Shown here one piece after another: positions 55,614 to 64,000 of a stretch of 64,000 nucleotides of DNA. The DNA is taken from sequence record PZ445517.1; one strand, 5' to 3'. This stretch comes from a phage. The notes under the pieces are model-generated. The model did not search any database, was not told where the DNA came from, and saw only the letters and a program-made list of their open reading frames with translations. Position 1 is the first letter of the stretch. Every line of letters starts with the position of its first letter. A program made the translations under genes and the position numbers.

Positions 55614-56615
55614 TTACTTAATTAACTGTAAAGCTTGTTCAAGACGATCCAGGCGATTAACAGATTCTTCCCAAATCTTTTTAGCCTGCTCATATTCTTT
55701 CTGCGCTTTATTAGAAATTTCTAGAACTTCTTTATAAGCTTTTTCTAATGCAATAACTTCTGGACGAATTTCTGCCGGTTCAGGCGAATCATCAAGATTA
55801 TCCATTAGTTCCTCAAGGGTAGTTTCTTCTTTAGGAGTATTCACAATTTCATCACATTTTTGTTGGTAAATTTCTTTATCAGTCGGTGAGTACGCACACT
55901 TTACTTCACGAAGACTAACTACAATTTTATATCCTTCCCAACCGCATATATTCTTAAAAGGATATGTATGAATATTTTCTACTGTTTCCATACAAAGTAA
56001 TGCAGTCTCTAACTGACGAGTTATAGTGCTAGCAATTGAGAAAAATTTATTAATATTCTTTTGGTTAGCGTTTGGTGTAAAAAATCCATAATTCACAAAA
56101 ATAGCTACTTTATTTTCATCAAGCTCATATTCTTTTACGATAATCATATCAGAAGCCAAAGGATGAATTTGACGATAATCGCCATAACATAATTTAGAAG
56201 CTGATTTTAGAATTTGTCCTTTGAAAAGTCTGAAATTACTAATCCAACGACGAGTAAAAATATTCTCAGGGTCTTCTTTATTATTAAGATGATAAGAATT
56301 AACATCACCGAACCAATTATATCCTACTACATCTTTGGTTCGTTTAATTTCTTTCCCAAAATTACCAAGAATATCCCGATTAACCAAATATGAAAGAAGA
56401 CGAGACTCTTTAAAAGTTTTCTTGATAACATCTTTATCTACACGGCTAGAAATTTTACGAATTTCATGAATAAATTTAGTAGAAGAAACAATACTTGCAT
56501 CAACACTATTGAGCCATTGATTGATAATAGAAAGAACGATATTTTGACCAAACATCGGTATAGCTTTATCATCAATAACGCTATTGAATGATTTGATATA
56601 TTCGTTACGAGTCAT
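55614..56615 (-). CDS. coiled-coil-tailed paralogue B, about 333 aa
   Basis: start at ATG 56613-56615 (GGAGA upstream, just downstream of an early promoter); FKESRLLS motif; C-terminal coiled coil ...RLDRLEQALQLIK. Confidence 0.45.
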   Translation of the reverse strand: MTRNEYIKSFNSVIDDKAIPMFGQNIVLSIINQWLNSVDASIVSSTKFIHEIRKISSRVDKDVIKKTFKESRLLSYLVNRDILGNFGKEIKRTKDVVGYNWFGDVNSYHLNNKEDPENIFTRRWISNFRLFKGQILKSASKLCYGDYRQIHPLASDMIIVKEYELDENKVAIFVNYGFFTPNANQKNINKFFSIASTITRQLETALLCMETVENIHTYPFKNICGWEGYKIVVSLREVKCAYSPTDKEIYQQKCDEIVNTPKEETTLEELMDNLDDSPEPAEIRPEVIALEKAYKEVLEISNKAQKEYEQAKKIWEESVNRLDRLEQALQLIK

Positions 56616-56643
56616 ATTAATCTCCTCATTAGAAAGTAAGAAC

Positions 56644-56673
56644 ATTATACCACATCCTTGTGGCGAAGTAAAC
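56644..56673 (-). promoter_or_regulatory. T4-type early promoter
   Basis: GTTTAC (56668-56673 rc), 18 nt, TGGTATAAT. Confidence 0.6.
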
Positions 56674-57698
56674 TAGTTTAGTGCATTTAGTGCATTGTTC
56701 AGTTTAGAACGTTGCTTTGTCAGATTTTGAACCCTTGACTGAGCTTGTTCTAACACCTTTTCAGCTTCTAGCACTTCATTGGTCGCTTTAACGAGTTCAT
56801 CATCTACTGCCTTAAGAGACTTCTCAATCGCGTCAGCGTGCCATTTTTCTACAGGTTTAAGACTCGGATTTTCAACAGGAAGAAAATTCACTTTATTGAA
56901 TTTCCATGCATCATTATTACCTGAACTATACATCCAAAATTTAGAATCGTTTGATGAGTAATTGGATAAATTTAAATTTAAATTATCTTGCACTTCTTGC
57001 TTTTTCTCTTGCGGGACTTCGTCCTTTCTCAAAAAATCGTATTTAAATGAAACGATCATATCAAGTTCATATGTTGTCGTATCTAACTTAAATCGTTCAA
57101 AACGAGGTAAAATCTTAGATTGAACAGCAGCAACAACATCCATATACTTAAATGCTTCTGTCAACTGTGATTTAAGGCATTCACAAATTGAAAGAGAATT
57201 TTTTGTATTAGGTTTAAAGCTAATTCGTGCAGTTCTATTATTTTCTTTTAACGGTCTTACTTCCATCTGAAGAGTATAACCATCAAATTTCAGATTCTTT
57301 AAGTTAATATCAGAACCTTTTAATCGACTAGCCGTAGACAAAATTTGCTTTAATTGTTTACGGAATAGAGCAATAAATCTCCATTCAAGACGATAATGAT
57401 TTGGATTAAAAAATCCTGTTGATAAATCAACCTTACTCTGACCAACGCCTTGAACAAATAGAGGATTTTTATAATCAATAGTTTTACAGAAATCGGTGAG
57501 CTGCTCACGAGCAGTCATTTGTGTAATATATCCCGCTTTACTAAAATGACGTAACCATTCACTGCTATTCATATACTTAAAGTGAATATCACGATTAACT
57601 TTATCAGGGTCTAAATTATTTTGGCACAAAAATGTCATAACATTACGTGTATAGCTAGCATTACGAACCATATCTTCAATTTGAGAACGAGTTTTCAT
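56673..57698 (-). CDS. coiled-coil-tailed paralogue C, 341 aa
   Basis: N-terminal MKTR... start and EWLRHFSK segment resemble paralogue A; C-terminal coiled coil. Confidence 0.45.
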   Translation of the reverse strand: MKTRSQIEDMVRNASYTRNVMTFLCQNNLDPDKVNRDIHFKYMNSSEWLRHFSKAGYITQMTAREQLTDFCKTIDYKNPLFVQGVGQSKVDLSTGFFNPNHYRLEWRFIALFRKQLKQILSTASRLKGSDINLKNLKFDGYTLQMEVRPLKENNRTARISFKPNTKNSLSICECLKSQLTEAFKYMDVVAAVQSKILPRFERFKLDTTTYELDMIVSFKYDFLRKDEVPQEKKQEVQDNLNLNLSNYSSNDSKFWMYSSGNNDAWKFNKVNFLPVENPSLKPVEKWHADAIEKSLKAVDDELVKATNEVLEAEKVLEQAQSRVQNLTKQRSKLNNALNALN

Positions 57699-59969: not shown

Positions 59970-60058
59970 TTACCAGTTTAATTCTAGTCATCTTTTTGAT
60001 GGCAGTCCATATAATCTATTTCTGAACTGCCTTTTTGTCATAGAAGGCCTCTTATGAA

Positions 60059-61027
60059 TTATTTCAGAAGAGTAACCTCAGCAATTTCTTCCCAACCATT
60101 TTTGTCGGTCATAATAAAGTCAGCAAGATAAAGAGCAGTACGCAGTGAAACATTGCGTAAACGATTAACATTGACTTTCATCCATGATAATGCTTTATAA
60201 GTTTCTTCATCAGAAAGACCGCGCTTTTGCATCATGTCAGTTGAAAGAATAACATCTTCAACCCTGACCATAATTTCTTCATTAGTGTGAACACCCAAAT
60301 CCAAATAAACCGAGCGGGACACTAATGCTTGTAAGTGTGGGGCAAGTTTAGTACCACGGTCTAATTCGCGGTCAATGTCAACGTTTGTGATAAAAACAAT
60401 CGTTCCTTTAAATTCAAACTCACGCTCAATGCCTTTTTCTTCTAAGTAAGAAGATGCAGTGCTCCAGCAGACTTTACGGGTCTCTCCAGTGTCCAGAGCA
60501 GCTTTCAGAAGATTAAGAATGTCCATATCAGAGAAAACATCCACATCATCAATCAAAAGGACAGAATTCTCTTCACGATTATTCCAAAGCTGCTCATAAA
60601 GACCAATACCAGAGATTTTACCATTAATGCTTTTATATTCAATGTATCCATTATCATTTGCTTTATTTAAAGCTTTATCTAAAGAATACGTTTTACCAAT
60701 ACCTGCTGCGCCAGAGATAATTAATGAACGAATATTTCCATTAATAATACCATTCGTCATCATTCCCATAACATTAAATCTTTTATTAATGCGGGTTTTC
60801 ATATCTTCATATGATTCTTTAACTTCTTCAACTTTTACACCATCATATGAAATATCTGATTTGTAAACCCAAACACCACGACGTTTACCGTCAATTTCAA
60901 CAAAAACTTTACCATCTCCTTGTGCATCTACCGGAGCATTATCTGGGAACCATTCGCCTAAGAGCTCAAAAGTTCCAGAGATTTCTTTACCGAAGTAGAT
61001 ACCCTTATTGATAGTTACAGTTTTCAT
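60059..61027 (-). CDS. P-loop NTPase (AAA+-like), 322 aa
   Basis: start at ATG 61025-61027 (GGAGA upstream); Walker A SGAAGIGKT, Walker B VLLIDDVD, sensor-1-like TIVFITN; own promoter and terminator. Confidence 0.6.
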   Translation of the reverse strand: MKTVTINKGIYFGKEISGTFELLGEWFPDNAPVDAQGDGKVFVEIDGKRRGVWVYKSDISYDGVKVEEVKESYEDMKTRINKRFNVMGMMTNGIINGNIRSLIISGAAGIGKTYSLDKALNKANDNGYIEYKSINGKISGIGLYEQLWNNREENSVLLIDDVDVFSDMDILNLLKAALDTGETRKVCWSTASSYLEEKGIEREFEFKGTIVFITNVDIDRELDRGTKLAPHLQALVSRSVYLDLGVHTNEEIMVRVEDVILSTDMMQKRGLSDEETYKALSWMKVNVNRLRNVSLRTALYLADFIMTDKNGWEEIAEVTLLK

Positions 61028-61061
61028 TTTATTCTCCAAATCTGTATCAGTTGATAGTTGT

Positions 61062-61091
61062 ATAGTACCATAAAGCTTTATGCTTGTAAAC
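61062..61091 (-). promoter_or_regulatory. T4-type early promoter
   Basis: GTTTAC (61086-61091 rc), 18 nt, TACTAT; conserved cassette. Confidence 0.6.
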
Positions 61092-61121
61092 AGTTTTGTG
61101 AAAAAATTTTGAAATAAAAAA

Positions 61122-61140
61122 GGGAGCCCGAAGGCTCCCT
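61122..61140 (-). terminator. intrinsic terminator downstream of the nucleotidyltransferase gene
   Basis: gggagcc-cgaa-ggctccc; minus strand hairpin followed by TTTTTTATTT. Confidence 0.65.
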
Positions 61141-61141
61141 A

Positions 61142-62155
61142 TCATTTATAATAACTTCGGTGGTTTTCAAGATAAACCCTCTCAAGGAAGTCATCCCAGA
61201 AACCCATGTCTACTTTTTGCTGCATACCGTTTTTAGAAGCTTCAATGGATGCTGCTTCTACTTGATCGACAACATCTTCCAAAAACTCTTGAACCGTTTT
61301 AAATGGATGTTTACCCAACTTCACGTCGAGAATAAATGGAGCATCTTGGAGTGGATAAACCAAGTCACCAGTTTTGTAAATTTCCAATAGTTGGAGCCCG
61401 CCACGGCAAGCATGACTTAGAGCTTTCCAATCAATGCCTTCATTCGCTTCAGCTTTACGAGCGCGTTCACCATATTCAGCATCAAGTTTATTCAAAGACT
61501 GCTTAAGCTCAATAAGAGAAAGCGTTGTCTGATATTTACGACCCAACACAGTATAGAACGTTTGCGGGCCTGTTTTCTCATGATTATGGAATACCCATTC
61601 GCAGAATTCGTTTTCTGGAAGACGGTGTTTAATATCTGCAATTTTAGTACGACGTTGTCCTTGTGTTCCATCTTCTCGGTAATCAACCCACTGATCGGGG
61701 ATTTGATTAACTACTTTCAATACATCACGCAATGCGGCCAAACGAGAACCCTTAACACCATATTTAGAAGCTTGCTTGCGGACATATCCTAAATAGGATT
61801 TCATGTTAGTCGTATAAAAACGAGAACGATTGTCTTGGATAAATTTCCACACATCAGGTAAATCAGATTTAACCACTAGTTCAGGTGGAGTGTGAAGCAT
61901 ATCCAATGCTACAGTTTCACCATCTGCTGCTAATTTAAAGAAATACTTAAGACTGTATAGTTCATGGTCAATATCATCTTTAGTGTTTTTAGATGATGTG
62001 TTGTTAGTGTTTTTACTCATATGCTCTTTAACATTTCCGATAAGAATATCGCGAGCAGGAGGAACAAAGATTTCTTTAAAATCCACATCAGATTCTGGAG
62101 TAGAAGTTCCATAAAGATGACTACCAAAATAGCTTTTCATTACTGTTTTCATCAT
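61142..62155 (-). CDS. Pol-beta-type nucleotidyltransferase-fold protein, 337 aa
   Basis: N-terminal signature GSHLYGTSTPESDVDF (GS-x9-DxD) with a further acidic residue in ...ETVALDMLH...; start overlaps the stop of the upstream membrane-protein gene (ATGA). Confidence 0.55.
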   Translation of the reverse strand: MMKTVMKSYFGSHLYGTSTPESDVDFKEIFVPPARDILIGNVKEHMSKNTNNTSSKNTKDDIDHELYSLKYFFKLAADGETVALDMLHTPPELVVKSDLPDVWKFIQDNRSRFYTTNMKSYLGYVRKQASKYGVKGSRLAALRDVLKVVNQIPDQWVDYREDGTQGQRRTKIADIKHRLPENEFCEWVFHNHEKTGPQTFYTVLGRKYQTTLSLIELKQSLNKLDAEYGERARKAEANEGIDWKALSHACRGGLQLLEIYKTGDLVYPLQDAPFILDVKLGKHPFKTVQEFLEDVVDQVEAASIEASKNGMQQKVDMGFWDDFLERVYLENHRSYYK

Positions 62156-62613
62156 TCAGCCTTATATTCAATAACAGGACATACTTTAGCTTTACGAGCT
62201 TTTAAAAATTCGACGATAATAGACTTCTTGGGTTGAATAGGAGGTAAACCTTTATACGCCCTATCAATATTTTCTACATGTAAAGCATAATCCTTTTTCC
62301 ATTTATAATCTTTATATTTTTCATGCAGTTGTGCAGGAATAACAAATGAACCAATAATAAGTAAAACAAGCAAAATGGCAAGTATAAATGCTGATGGAAT
62401 AAGAGTCCATAAACTACTAAAAATAAGCCAACGTTGTAAACTTTCTGCGCAGATAATAGTTAGACCTGCGAGTATAGTACATCCAAAAACAGAAACGAAG
62501 AATGTAGGAATGGCAATAGACCAAAAATATGCACACAGTGTCTTAGGTCGTTTCCATTCATCATTAAACATTTTGAATAATTTATAATGCCAAGAGCTTT
62601 CATTAATAATCAT
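62152..62613 (-). CDS. hypothetical membrane protein, 153 aa
   Basis: hydrophobic segments AYFWSIAIPTFFVSVFGCTILAGLTIICA and LIPSAFILAILLVLLIIGSFVIP; coupled to the nucleotidyltransferase gene. Confidence 0.45.
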   Translation of the reverse strand: MIINESSWHYKLFKMFNDEWKRPKTLCAYFWSIAIPTFFVSVFGCTILAGLTIICAESLQRWLIFSSLWTLIPSAFILAILLVLLIIGSFVIPAQLHEKYKDYKWKKDYALHVENIDRAYKGLPPIQPKKSIIVEFLKARKAKVCPVIEYKAE

Positions 62614-62615
62614 AA

Positions 62616-63137
62616 TTATCCTTTCATTGAAGGTGTAACAGTTGTTAAATACTTAATCATAGCTTCAGCTTCTGATTTTGATAATGAAATTTCTCCATTG
62701 TTTTGACGAATAGAAATAAAATCAGGGTGACGGTCACCACCAGCTTTCAAAACACACATATAGGTATCAGTTTCATCTTCAATATTTGAAATGATTGAAG
62801 CAGTTCCGCATGAATGCGGTTTTTGATAAATCAATACAGCTTTTCTTCCGCCATTTGACTGTTCATAAACTTTTAATACATCAAACAAATCACTTCTTTT
62901 ATCAATAGCTAAAATGTTATTTTCATCTTCAATGTTAAATCCTTCGGATACTTCATAAAGTGTCACCCATAAATCGTCAATATCAATAACAGCGTTCACT
63001 TTTCCATGACTTTCAAGAGCATGACAAATTTTCTTGATTTCGTCATAACTCATTTTAATAATATCATCTCCTTGAATAAGGAAGATGTCATTTTTAAATT
63101 CAACACGAATTAAACCGCTTCCACTTGAAATAAACAT
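62616..63137 (-). CDS. hypothetical protein, 173 aa (paralogue of 63144..63689)
   Basis: C-terminus ...SKSEAEAMIKYLTTVTPSMKG aligns with ...TKDEAIALKTYLDSVIPTMISK of the adjacent ORF. Confidence 0.45.
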   Translation of the reverse strand: MFISSGSGLIRVEFKNDIFLIQGDDIIKMSYDEIKKICHALESHGKVNAVIDIDDLWVTLYEVSEGFNIEDENNILAIDKRSDLFDVLKVYEQSNGGRKAVLIYQKPHSCGTASIISNIEDETDTYMCVLKAGGDRHPDFISIRQNNGEISLSKSEAEAMIKYLTTVTPSMKG

Positions 63138-63143
63138 ATTTCC

Positions 63144-63689
63144 TCACTTTGAAATCATAGTTGGAATGACAGAATCAAGATAAGTCTTTAGCGCAATAGC
63201 TTCGTCTTTGGTAAATGTAACAATATGTGATCGAAAATCGTCAATTTGGCGAATAGTTAAGACATCTCCCTCTTCATAACATTTTGATACATTTAAAAGA
63301 GTTTCATCATTCTGATTGCAAGCGTTAGTAATAATAGCATTGCAATTTTTGAGCCATTTTAAACTATGTTTTCTTTCATTAGAATAATAAAAATATTTAA
63401 TCTTATCTATAAAACTATCCCAATGGATAACTGATAAGCATATTGACTCGCTTTCAATATTAAATCCTGGGCATGAAGAATAAAAATGAATTTTATGCTC
63501 ATCATTAATGCTTACAATTTTATCAGTATAAGGATTTTCAATTTTGGTTAAATGAATGATTTCACTAGGCGTAAAATACAGCATATCGTCTTCTTGTGTC
63601 AAACGATACATATTATTTACTTTTTCTATAGCCAATTCACCAAAAAGTGAACTAACTTCTAATACTAATCGTTTCGCCGCTACCGTCAT
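63144..63689 (-). CDS. hypothetical protein, 181 aa (paralogue of 62616..63137)
   Basis: shared C-terminal motif and shared G-F-N-I-E segment with the adjacent ORF. Confidence 0.45.
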   Translation of the reverse strand: MTVAAKRLVLEVSSLFGELAIEKVNNMYRLTQEDDMLYFTPSEIIHLTKIENPYTDKIVSINDEHKIHFYSSCPGFNIESESICLSVIHWDSFIDKIKYFYYSNERKHSLKWLKNCNAIITNACNQNDETLLNVSKCYEEGDVLTIRQIDDFRSHIVTFTKDEAIALKTYLDSVIPTMISK

Positions 63690-63821
63690 TACATACTCCT
63701 CTGAATCATATCAATAATGTTGTTCACCAGATTATAAGTAAACATTGGGTAATTATATTGAATCACCACATACACAACAAACAAAACTTTCATTCTCTTC
63801 TCCTTGGCAGTTGACAAGATT

Positions 63822-63851
63822 ACTATACCATAACCTTGCCAACTTGTAAAC
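63822..63851 (-). promoter_or_regulatory. T4-type early promoter at the head of the paralogue / membrane / nucleotidyltransferase operon
   Basis: GTTTAC (63846-63851 rc), 18 nt, TGGTATAGT. Confidence 0.55.
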
Positions 63852-63853
63852 CA

Positions 63854-64000
63854 TTAAATGACGTTTTCGATAAAATTCTGAAGCTTTGTATGAGCATCAA
63901 CCATGATTTTCATTTCTTCCTTTGCGAAAGCTGTACCTCTTTCACGAGAAGAACATTCATAGTCAGAAACTGCATTAGCATATTCTTCAATTAGCTTCAT
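63854..64000 (-). CDS. hypothetical small protein, 48 aa or longer (may be truncated by the window end)
   Basis: hand-translated MKLIEEYANAVSDYECSSRERGTAFAKEEMKIMVDAHTKLQNFIENVI; the ATG is the last three bases of the window so the true start is uncertain. Confidence 0.25.
   Translation of the reverse strand: MKLIEEYANAVSDYECSSRERGTAFAKEEMKIMVDAHTKLQNFIENVI

Follow-up and report, generated by a model that had tools for sequence, protein, structure and literature searches.

What does a nucleotidyltransferase do at the end of a tightly packed transcription unit of a T4-like phage, immediately behind a gene for a small membrane protein? The question is raised by a block of about 3 kb on the minus strand of a 64,000-nt stretch of phage DNA (sequence record PZ445517.1; the whole stretch is called the window below), whose last gene, nrdC.11, encodes a protein of 337 amino acids (aa). 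The 3-kb stretch shows 100% identity with Escherichia phage T4_ev240 and is found at full length with 90–96% identity in more than 400 Tequatrovirus records. Compared with the T4 reference, its genes include mobD.2, mobD.1 and nrdC.11, with nrdC.10 downstream, and the block is the Tequatrovirus early unit mobD.2 – mobD.1 – mobD.1-paralogue – membrane protein – nrdC.11. An earlier note on this DNA, made from the sequence alone, recognized a Pol-beta-type nucleotidyltransferase, took its pairing with the membrane protein as a hint of nucleotide signalling or of nucleotidylation of a host target, and considered its function and subfamily unidentifiable from sequence. Our comparisons place NrdC.11 in the RlaP family of RNA-repair nucleotidyltransferases, find its cellular homologues beside RNA-repair genes, and show that the gene is kept in T4 after loss of the membrane gene. 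NrdC.11 is probably an RNA 3'-end nucleotidyltransferase.

NrdC.11 matches the Pfam family PF10127 (‘RlaP, RNA repair pathway DNA polymerase beta family’) with 43.7 bits against a gathering score of 23 (E = 3.6e-11; residues 7–135 of NrdC.11, profile positions 23–142 of 249), and this is the sole family above a curated threshold. The subfamily can therefore be read from the sequence after all, and a December 2025 preprint assigns T4 NrdC.11 to this family by name, in cluster 5 of a sequence similarity network (PMC12776372). The PF10127 assignment is precomputed for 120 of 120 NrdC.11 homologues among the matches listed, and of 1.8 billion cluster representatives, 3,432 are related to NrdC.11 at E ≤ 1e-3, among them 822 with E ≤ 1e-30. 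The nucleotidyltransferase signature seen in the earlier note, GSHLYGTSTPESDVDF, occupies residues 11–26. In an alignment of 138 relatives with 34–55% identity, G11, S12, Y132, H248, R251 and P268 are invariant, and D23, D25, N57, D61, D63, D85, K131, K244 and K279 are conserved in at least 90% of the sequences, and the GS...DxD residues, which the note had proposed to check in relatives, are thus kept. The AlphaFold2 model of NrdC.11 built on this alignment (pLDDT 94.4, pTM 0.84) shows an alpha/beta nucleotidyltransferase core at the N-terminus, a helical domain at the C-terminus and, at about residues 155–209, a beta-rich insert. In the model, G11-S12 of the hG[GS] pattern lie in the loop after strand 3–10, D23 and D25 of the [DE]x[DE] pattern at the start of strand 24–31, and D61 and D63, as candidates for the third carboxylate, at the start of strand 62–68. 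Because D63 is aligned with the invariant Asp of the canonical RlaPs, it is most likely the third catalytic carboxylate. The note had mentioned one downstream acidic residue; such a residue exists, although it is D63 that most likely fills the catalytic place, and D85 is a further conserved acid.

The canonical RlaPs, such as PfRlaP and PaRlaP of the Pseudomonas rtcB-rlaP-rtcA operons (PMC12776372), belong to the same Pfam family and match PF10127 along their whole length (E = 5e-79 for the one that was scanned). A profile-to-profile alignment by hhalign of NrdC.11 with 16 canonical short RlaPs gives a probability of 94.7% (E = 5.6e-8) over 82 N-terminal columns, in which the GS pair and D23xD25 fall on GS and DxD of the canonical proteins, D63 on their invariant third Asp, and D85 on an invariant Glu (E94). 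In the model of NrdC.11, as in the canonical RlaPs, a helical domain comes after the nucleotidyltransferase domain, and both kinds of protein are genomically tied to RtcB, RtcA, Pnkp and Hen1; however, NrdC.11 is about 80 residues longer than the canonical RlaPs, bears the extra beta-rich insert, and falls in a separate similarity cluster. By these alignments NrdC.11 is, over the catalytic core, a genuine though divergent long-form RlaP, in accordance with the cluster of its own that it forms in the published network. The structural matches of the model are all of the Pol-beta fold (KNTase/ANT(4'), ANT(3'')(9), LinB, DrrA and GlnE), and the comparison with solved folds proposed in the earlier note thus returned a catalytic fold and no non-catalytic one. 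Against the PDB, Foldseek gave weak matches at the superfamily level (E ~1e-2). The C-terminal part of the model matches HEPN-like four-helix domains, and among viral models its structural neighbours are nucleotidyltransferases encoded by a wide set of jumbo and giant viruses. A sequence search of the PDB, in a version that holds no RlaP structure, returned no significant match for the single NrdC.11 sequence, the 138-sequence profile or the canonical RlaP profile.

The distribution of NrdC.11 extends well beyond the Tequatroviruses. A tblastn search with NrdC.11 hit 1,514 phage records, which include Straboviridae of Escherichia, Klebsiella, Aeromonas, Acinetobacter and Vibrio and some jumbo phages, and most Tequatrovirus records encode an NrdC.11 of 95–99% identity. 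Canonical short RlaPs were found in 86 phage records, mostly of phiKZ-like and other jumbo phages, and in none of the T4-like phages. To the cellular side, we collected 80 bacterial and archaeal loci (a few archaeal assemblies among them) with full-length NrdC.11 homologues of 32–54% identity, clustered the open reading frames (ORFs) within 4.5 kb and named them by Pfam. RtcB is found near the NrdC.11-type homologue in 8 of the 80 loci, Pnkp (kinase-phosphatase-ligase) in 5, Hen1 in 5, Ro/TROVE in 3 and RtcA in 2, and a canonical short RlaP lies directly downstream in 16. At least one RNA-repair enzyme is present in 15 of the 80 loci, and either a repair enzyme or a second RlaP in 27; where both flanks reach at least 3 kb, which holds for 48 loci, the latter count is 19. 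By our own rough order-of-magnitude estimate, a given single-copy gene is expected in a 9-kb neighbourhood of a multi-megabase genome about 0.2% of the time, and the RNA-repair neighbourhood is thus a strong association. This association holds independently of the literature. The NrdC.11 type is a distinct long subfamily that stands beside RNA-repair genes in cellular genomes as well. On the phage side, phiM12 has an RNA ligase 3.3 kb upstream of its nucleotidyltransferase gene, and the phage of the window itself encodes Pnkp (pseT; Pfam HAD_PNKP, 7e-59) and rnlA.

Both the locus and its family assignment have been published before. The idea of an enzyme that restores nucleotides has likewise appeared, as a prediction in 2016 and 2021 and as family-level biochemistry in 2025, and the window therefore adds no new kind of system. 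A nucleotidyltransferase domain was noted in nrdC.11 in 2006 (COG3541; PMC1524935), the RlaP family was named by Burroughs and Aravind in 2016, according to papers that cite them, and a prediction holds that RlaP puts back, ahead of ligation, the nucleotides that nucleases such as RloC remove (PMC7824862). In the preprint of December 2025, two Pseudomonas RlaPs add one or two nucleoside monophosphates to the 3'-OH of RNA but not to DNA or protein; PfRlaP and PaRlaP prefer Mn2+ and show little nucleotide specificity. On a tRNA mimic they act on the broken anticodon-loop end in preference to the acceptor-side fragment, and a tRNA that had lacked one nucleotide is better aminoacylated when it is repaired with their help (PMC12776372).

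Pnkp and Rnl1 of T4 were the first RNA-repair system discovered. In the classical pathway, by which T4 repairs tRNA and counters PrrC, these two enzymes act without NrdC.11, and NrdC.11 is proposed here as an extra step in a phage that encodes both. A RloC-type anticodon nuclease of the host would cut the anticodon loop of a tRNA and trim a nucleotide. NrdC.11 would then add one or a few nucleotides, template-independently, to the 3'-OH of the broken RNA, for which the 5' half of the cut and trimmed tRNA is the best candidate; this addition would be non-specific, so that correct products would make up only a fraction. Finally, Pnkp (pseT) would heal the ends and RNA ligase 1 (rnlA/Rnl1) would seal the full-length tRNA. 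RNA as the substrate of NrdC.11 and a trimmed tRNA as its target in vivo are inferred, and we place less confidence in the whole RloC scenario than in the biochemical activity. If the scenario is true, NrdC.11 would be the missing third enzyme by which T4-like phages defeat nucleotide-excising anticodon nucleases such as RloC; an enzyme restoring nucleotides would complete the T4 Pnkp/Rnl1 story and would explain the presence of NrdC.11 homologues in about 1,500 phage genomes.

Several points weigh against this reading. The Pfam match (residues 7–135) and the hhalign match (82 columns) are confined to the N-terminal half of NrdC.11, and the C-terminal half, including the insert at about 155–209, is unalignable to canonical RlaP. 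The nearest solved structure is HalB of the Hailong system, which makes DNA oligomers and is no RNA enzyme. In the genome of this phage, nrdC.11 is unlinked to pseT and rnlA, from which some 80 kb separate it, and the part of NrdC.11 in the Pnkp-Rnl1 pathway is a proposal. Moreover, the preprint labels T4 NrdC.11 as ‘of unknown function’ (PMC12776372), and T4 tolerates deletion of the nrdC.11–mobD.3 segment on laboratory hosts (PMC9825161). The frequent tandem with canonical RlaP in bacteria is a further objection, as it points to an activity of the NrdC.11 type that is non-redundant and may be a different one.

Tandem occurrence, together with the different C-terminal half, is thus a warning that the activity of NrdC.11 may not be that of canonical RlaP. 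The long NrdC.11 type may differ in the nucleotide or the RNA end that it prefers, or may carry out a second step, a possibility that we regard as more probable than a Hailong-like pair; such a distinct activity would explain why the long form so often stands in tandem with a canonical RlaP beside RtcB or Pnkp/Hen1, and the frequency of this pairing hints at a division of labour between the two forms. The tandem loci, in which the canonical partner has 250–290 aa, are L012, L014, L023, L030, L033, L038, L040, L055, L057, L062, L068, L072, L077, L078 and L085 (and L066), and several of these long/short pairs adjoin RtcB/RtcA or Pnkp/Hen1.

Among the alternatives, NrdC.11 might transfer a nucleotide to a host protein, as DrrA, GlnE and the MNT antitoxins do, or to a small molecule, as do KNTase, ANT and LinB. 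The structural likeness to these enzymes is generic to the superfamily, as is the weak match of the NCBIfam MntA model over the GS...D motif, which reaches 13.2 bits against a cut-off of 60, whereas RlaP alone passes its curated threshold. The neighbourhoods of the homologues are those of RNA repair, and canonical RlaPs labelled neither proteins nor DNA in vitro (PMC12776372). The helical domain of NrdC.11 has the conserved motif DWKAxSHAxR. The HEPN motif is Rx4-6H, from which this motif differs. We consider nucleotidylation of a protein or a small molecule unlikely. Two narrower assignments were rejected: membership in the MNT family of type VII toxin-antitoxin systems, for which the MntA score falls short and an adjacent HEPN gene is lacking in the block, and an antibiotic nucleotidyltransferase, to which NrdC.11 has the superfamily likeness only.

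It is also unlikely that the five genes form one functional module in host takeover. Tight packing, overlapping starts and stops and the common promoter and terminator would favour such a module, and the whole block is conserved in 427–429 phage records; however, this conservation is among close genomes of 90–96% identity, and the module conservation that the earlier note had proposed to look for across T4-like genomes breaks down in the T4 group, in Jiaodavirus and in more distant phages. The clearest case is T4 itself. The alignment of T4 to the window ends at 63119 and restarts at 62156, and the 962 bp between, which are absent from T4, comprise nearly all of the 173-aa mobD.1 paralogue and the complete membrane gene. 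In their place T4 has an 808-bp cassette with the HNH homing endonuclease gene mobD (window 62157–63118 versus T4 56450–57257), and only the first ~19 nt of the 173-aa paralogue are kept. A review of T4 mobile elements lists nrdC.11/mobD.1 as the mobD insertion site (PMC2988022). The mobD state is found in 47 records (T4 and 46 others), all of T4 strains and close relatives with at least 99% identity, whereas the two-gene state, with the 173-aa paralogue and the membrane gene, is found in 427 phage records. In Mosigvirus, mobD.1 (45% identity), the membrane gene (48%) and the nucleotidyltransferase gene stand side by side, with one y05I copy. Because the mobD state is confined to a near-identical T4 group and Mosigvirus keeps the membrane gene, the two-gene state is ancestral, and T4 lost the paralogue and the membrane gene but retained an intact nrdC.11, a clean case of a homing endonuclease displacing two accessory genes.

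The T4 orthologue (NP_049709, annotated as ‘nucleotidyltransferase’; COG3541/PF10127) is ~93% identical in DNA across the gene. Like the gene of the window it lies upstream of nrdC.10, and its terminator and promoters are unchanged; it differs in being preceded by mobD, where the window has the second y05I paralogue and the gene of the 153-aa membrane protein. The T4 replacement shows that NrdC.11 can be kept without the membrane gene and the second paralogue, and that the nucleotidyltransferase is independent of its membrane neighbour. Outside this group, the Jiaodavirus KP182 has a membrane homologue (30% identity) two genes away from the nucleotidyltransferase gene, and in the Pseudotevenvirus leB, Klebsiella phage Miami (Miamivirus), Vibrio phage D483 and phiM12 the proteins encoded directly upstream are soluble and unrelated. 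Among the phages compared, the pairing of membrane gene and nucleotidyltransferase gene is limited to Tequatrovirus and Mosigvirus, and all 80 cellular loci lack y05I and membrane-gene partners. A natural fusion of mobD.1 with its paralogue (see below) also speaks against an obligate set of partners, and the block is a syntenic string of accessory genes rather than an obligate functional module.

Maintenance of the CCA 3' ends of phage or host tRNAs, in which NrdC.11 would replace or supplement the host CCA-adding enzyme, is quite improbable. NrdC.11 is a Pol-beta nucleotidyltransferase whose canonical relatives act on RNA 3' ends, and jumbo phages often carry CCA-adding enzymes for like purposes (PMC7824862); however, no CCA-adding or poly(A) polymerase family matches NrdC.11 in Pfam or NCBIfam, none appears among the top structural matches, and the canonical RlaPs are little nucleotide-specific and prefer the broken anticodon-loop end (PMC12776372). 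The maturation of T4 tRNAs is, moreover, known to depend on the host CCA enzyme.

The link to nucleotide signalling that the earlier note proposed is not supported. That NrdC.11 makes a cyclic or linear oligonucleotide acting on the membrane protein in the manner of CBASS, OAS or Hailong, or an oligonucleotide decoy that keeps host HalA-type channels closed and so serves as an anti-Hailong factor, is very improbable, because, although a membrane protein gene followed by a nucleotidyltransferase gene with an ATGA overlap recalls the Hailong operon (PMC13434031) and the pairing is kept in Mosigvirus too, CD-NTase, OAS and defence-system profiles in Pfam, NCBIfam and PADLOC match no protein of the block, the 153-aa membrane protein has no sequence match among solved chains, the nucleotidyltransferase outlasts the loss of the membrane gene in T4 and 46 near-identical records, Jiaodavirus and the four other phages named above have soluble proteins directly upstream, and the cellular homologues adjoin RNA-repair genes and no membrane effectors. 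Hailong is a two-gene operon of the membrane channel HalA and the oligo-dA-synthesising nucleotidyltransferase HalB (PMC13434031). HalB (PDB 9dbh/9dbj), which makes tyrosine-primed oligo-dA, shows 15% identity with NrdC.11 and no profile match, and the pairing of nrdC.11 with a membrane gene is unconserved among phages. NrdC.11 accordingly belongs neither with HalB, by sequence, profile or an obligate HalA-like partner, nor with the CD-NTase/cGAS/OAS enzymes, for which a profile or fold match with a conserved effector partner was sought in vain.

The layout of the unit is given in Table 1.

Table 1. Features of the mobD.2–nrdC.11 unit, in window coordinates
Feature	Position	Strand	Basis
Promoter, T4-early-type sigma-70	63822..63851	minus	(G)TTTACA-17-TATAGT, extended TG
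mobD.2-like ORF, 34 aa	63689..63793	minus	ATG after AAGGAG; PHROG 3515, E 5e-22
mobD.1 orthologue, 181 aa, y05I-like	63144..63689	minus	Pfam T4_y05I_N/T4_y05I_C; PHROG 1502
Second y05I-like paralogue, 173 aa	62616..63137	minus	same two Pfam domains as mobD.1
Membrane protein, 153 aa	62152..62613	minus	hydropathy; PHROG 944 ‘membrane protein’, E 1e-49
NrdC.11, 337 aa, RlaP-family (PF10127) Pol-beta nucleotidyltransferase, long ‘NrdC.11 type’	61142..62155	minus	Pfam; PHROG 388 ‘nucleotidyltransferase’, full length, E 8e-136
Intrinsic terminator closing the unit	61121..61140	minus	8-bp stem, UUCG loop, T6 tail

The unit between 61121 and 63851 has five cistrons and not four as the earlier note had it, because the mobD.2 ORF intervenes between the promoter and the paralogues, which had been described as following without gaps. 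This ORF has a strong AAGGAG ribosome-binding site and its stop overlaps the start of mobD.1 (TAATG); it is annotated as mobD.2 in T4 and as a coding sequence in T4_ev240. The gaps are 6 nt between mobD.1 and the 173-aa paralogue and 2 nt between the paralogue and the membrane gene, and the last two genes overlap by ATGA, as had been seen. The promoter has the top sigma-70-type score (at 63850–63822) in a 4-kb scan of window 60000–64000, and its hexamers are the same in T4. It belongs to a class, GTTTAC-N15-TGGTA, of which the 64-kb window has 13 copies, 13 of 13 on the minus strand, versus 0.12 expected by chance; this class bears the signature of the early promoters of the phage, and the 13 sites, which span window 3392–63851, make a ready map of them. 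Promoter class, packing and terminator together bear out a tight early-type transcription unit, whose early timing is suggested by the promoter type. The terminator has 6 GC pairs in its 8-bp stem and a folding energy of −17.7 kcal/mol (z = −3.8; 0 of 200 shuffles fold as well), as strong as had been claimed, and its sequence is identical in T4.

The unit had been thought to be bounded on both sides. This holds downstream, where the terminator closes it, but upstream it is open: in the matching genome T4_ev240 no terminator was found between the mobD.5–mobD.2a genes and the promoter, and read-through from mobD.5–mobD.2a is likely for this reason. In T4_ev240, just past the end of the window (L004 2305–2396), a terminator after rI.-1 is followed by an early promoter ahead of mobD.5. 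The predicted terminator-to-terminator unit is thus mobD.5 to nrdC.11, with two promoters.

The two proteins of about 175 aa that had been taken as paralogues, of 181 and 173 aa, show 28% identity over 176 aa (E = 3e-10), and both have both domains of the y05I family (PF24449 and PF24448). In mobD.1, T4_y05I_N scores 130.3 bits (E = 4.6e-38) and T4_y05I_C 75.2 bits (E = 5.3e-21), and in the 173-aa paralogue the scores are 118.9 and 83.0 bits, against cut-offs of about 25–27; the E values for the domains in the two proteins range from 1e-21 to 1e-38. The two are true paralogues within the y05I family, a small one of 35 clusters whose members come essentially all from T4-like phages. ‘Putative transcription factor’ is Pfam's label for y05I and gives at most a putative role. 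An AlphaFold2 model of mobD.1 from a shallow alignment of 17 sequences reached a pLDDT of 51.6, too poor for a fold search. A protein found on 6 contigs (P0291) is a natural chimera, with the N-terminal two thirds of mobD.1 and the C-terminal third of the 173-aa paralogue, which presumably arose by recombination between the tandem paralogues. The 153-aa protein, described before as a membrane protein, has two strong hydrophobic segments (38–56 and 74–92) and a possible third (26–44), hence two or three predicted transmembrane segments, and a lysine-rich basic C-terminal tail. No sequence relatives of the membrane protein or of mobD.1 were found in the PDB.

Over the whole window (1–64000), a tRNA scan found no tRNA genes, and no Rfam family reached its gathering threshold, hence there is no group I intron signal. 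Right after the terminator, an early-class promoter GTTTAC-N15-TGGTA at 61066–61091 drives nrdC.10 (window 60059–61091, minus strand), which encodes 326 aa (322 aa from ATG) with the Walker A motif GAAGIGKT and belongs to PHROG 1250 (E = 6e-167); its Pfam matches to AAA/STAND-NTPases are weak and below threshold. The space between nrdC.11 and nrdC.10 is a hot spot of plasticity among the relatives. Phage EP01 (L092 3300–3785) has an extra gene of 161 aa there, annotated as a modA-like ADP-ribosyltransferase, and phage KMB22 (L001 6978–7178, 8201–8920) has an ORF of 66 aa in the gap and a homing endonuclease gene right after nrdC.10. Many records mislabel nrdC.11 and nrdC.10 as ‘thioredoxin’, and mobD.1 and mobD.4 as ‘molybdopterin-guanine dinucleotide biosynthesis protein MobD’, because these names were propagated from the gene symbols nrdC and mobD.

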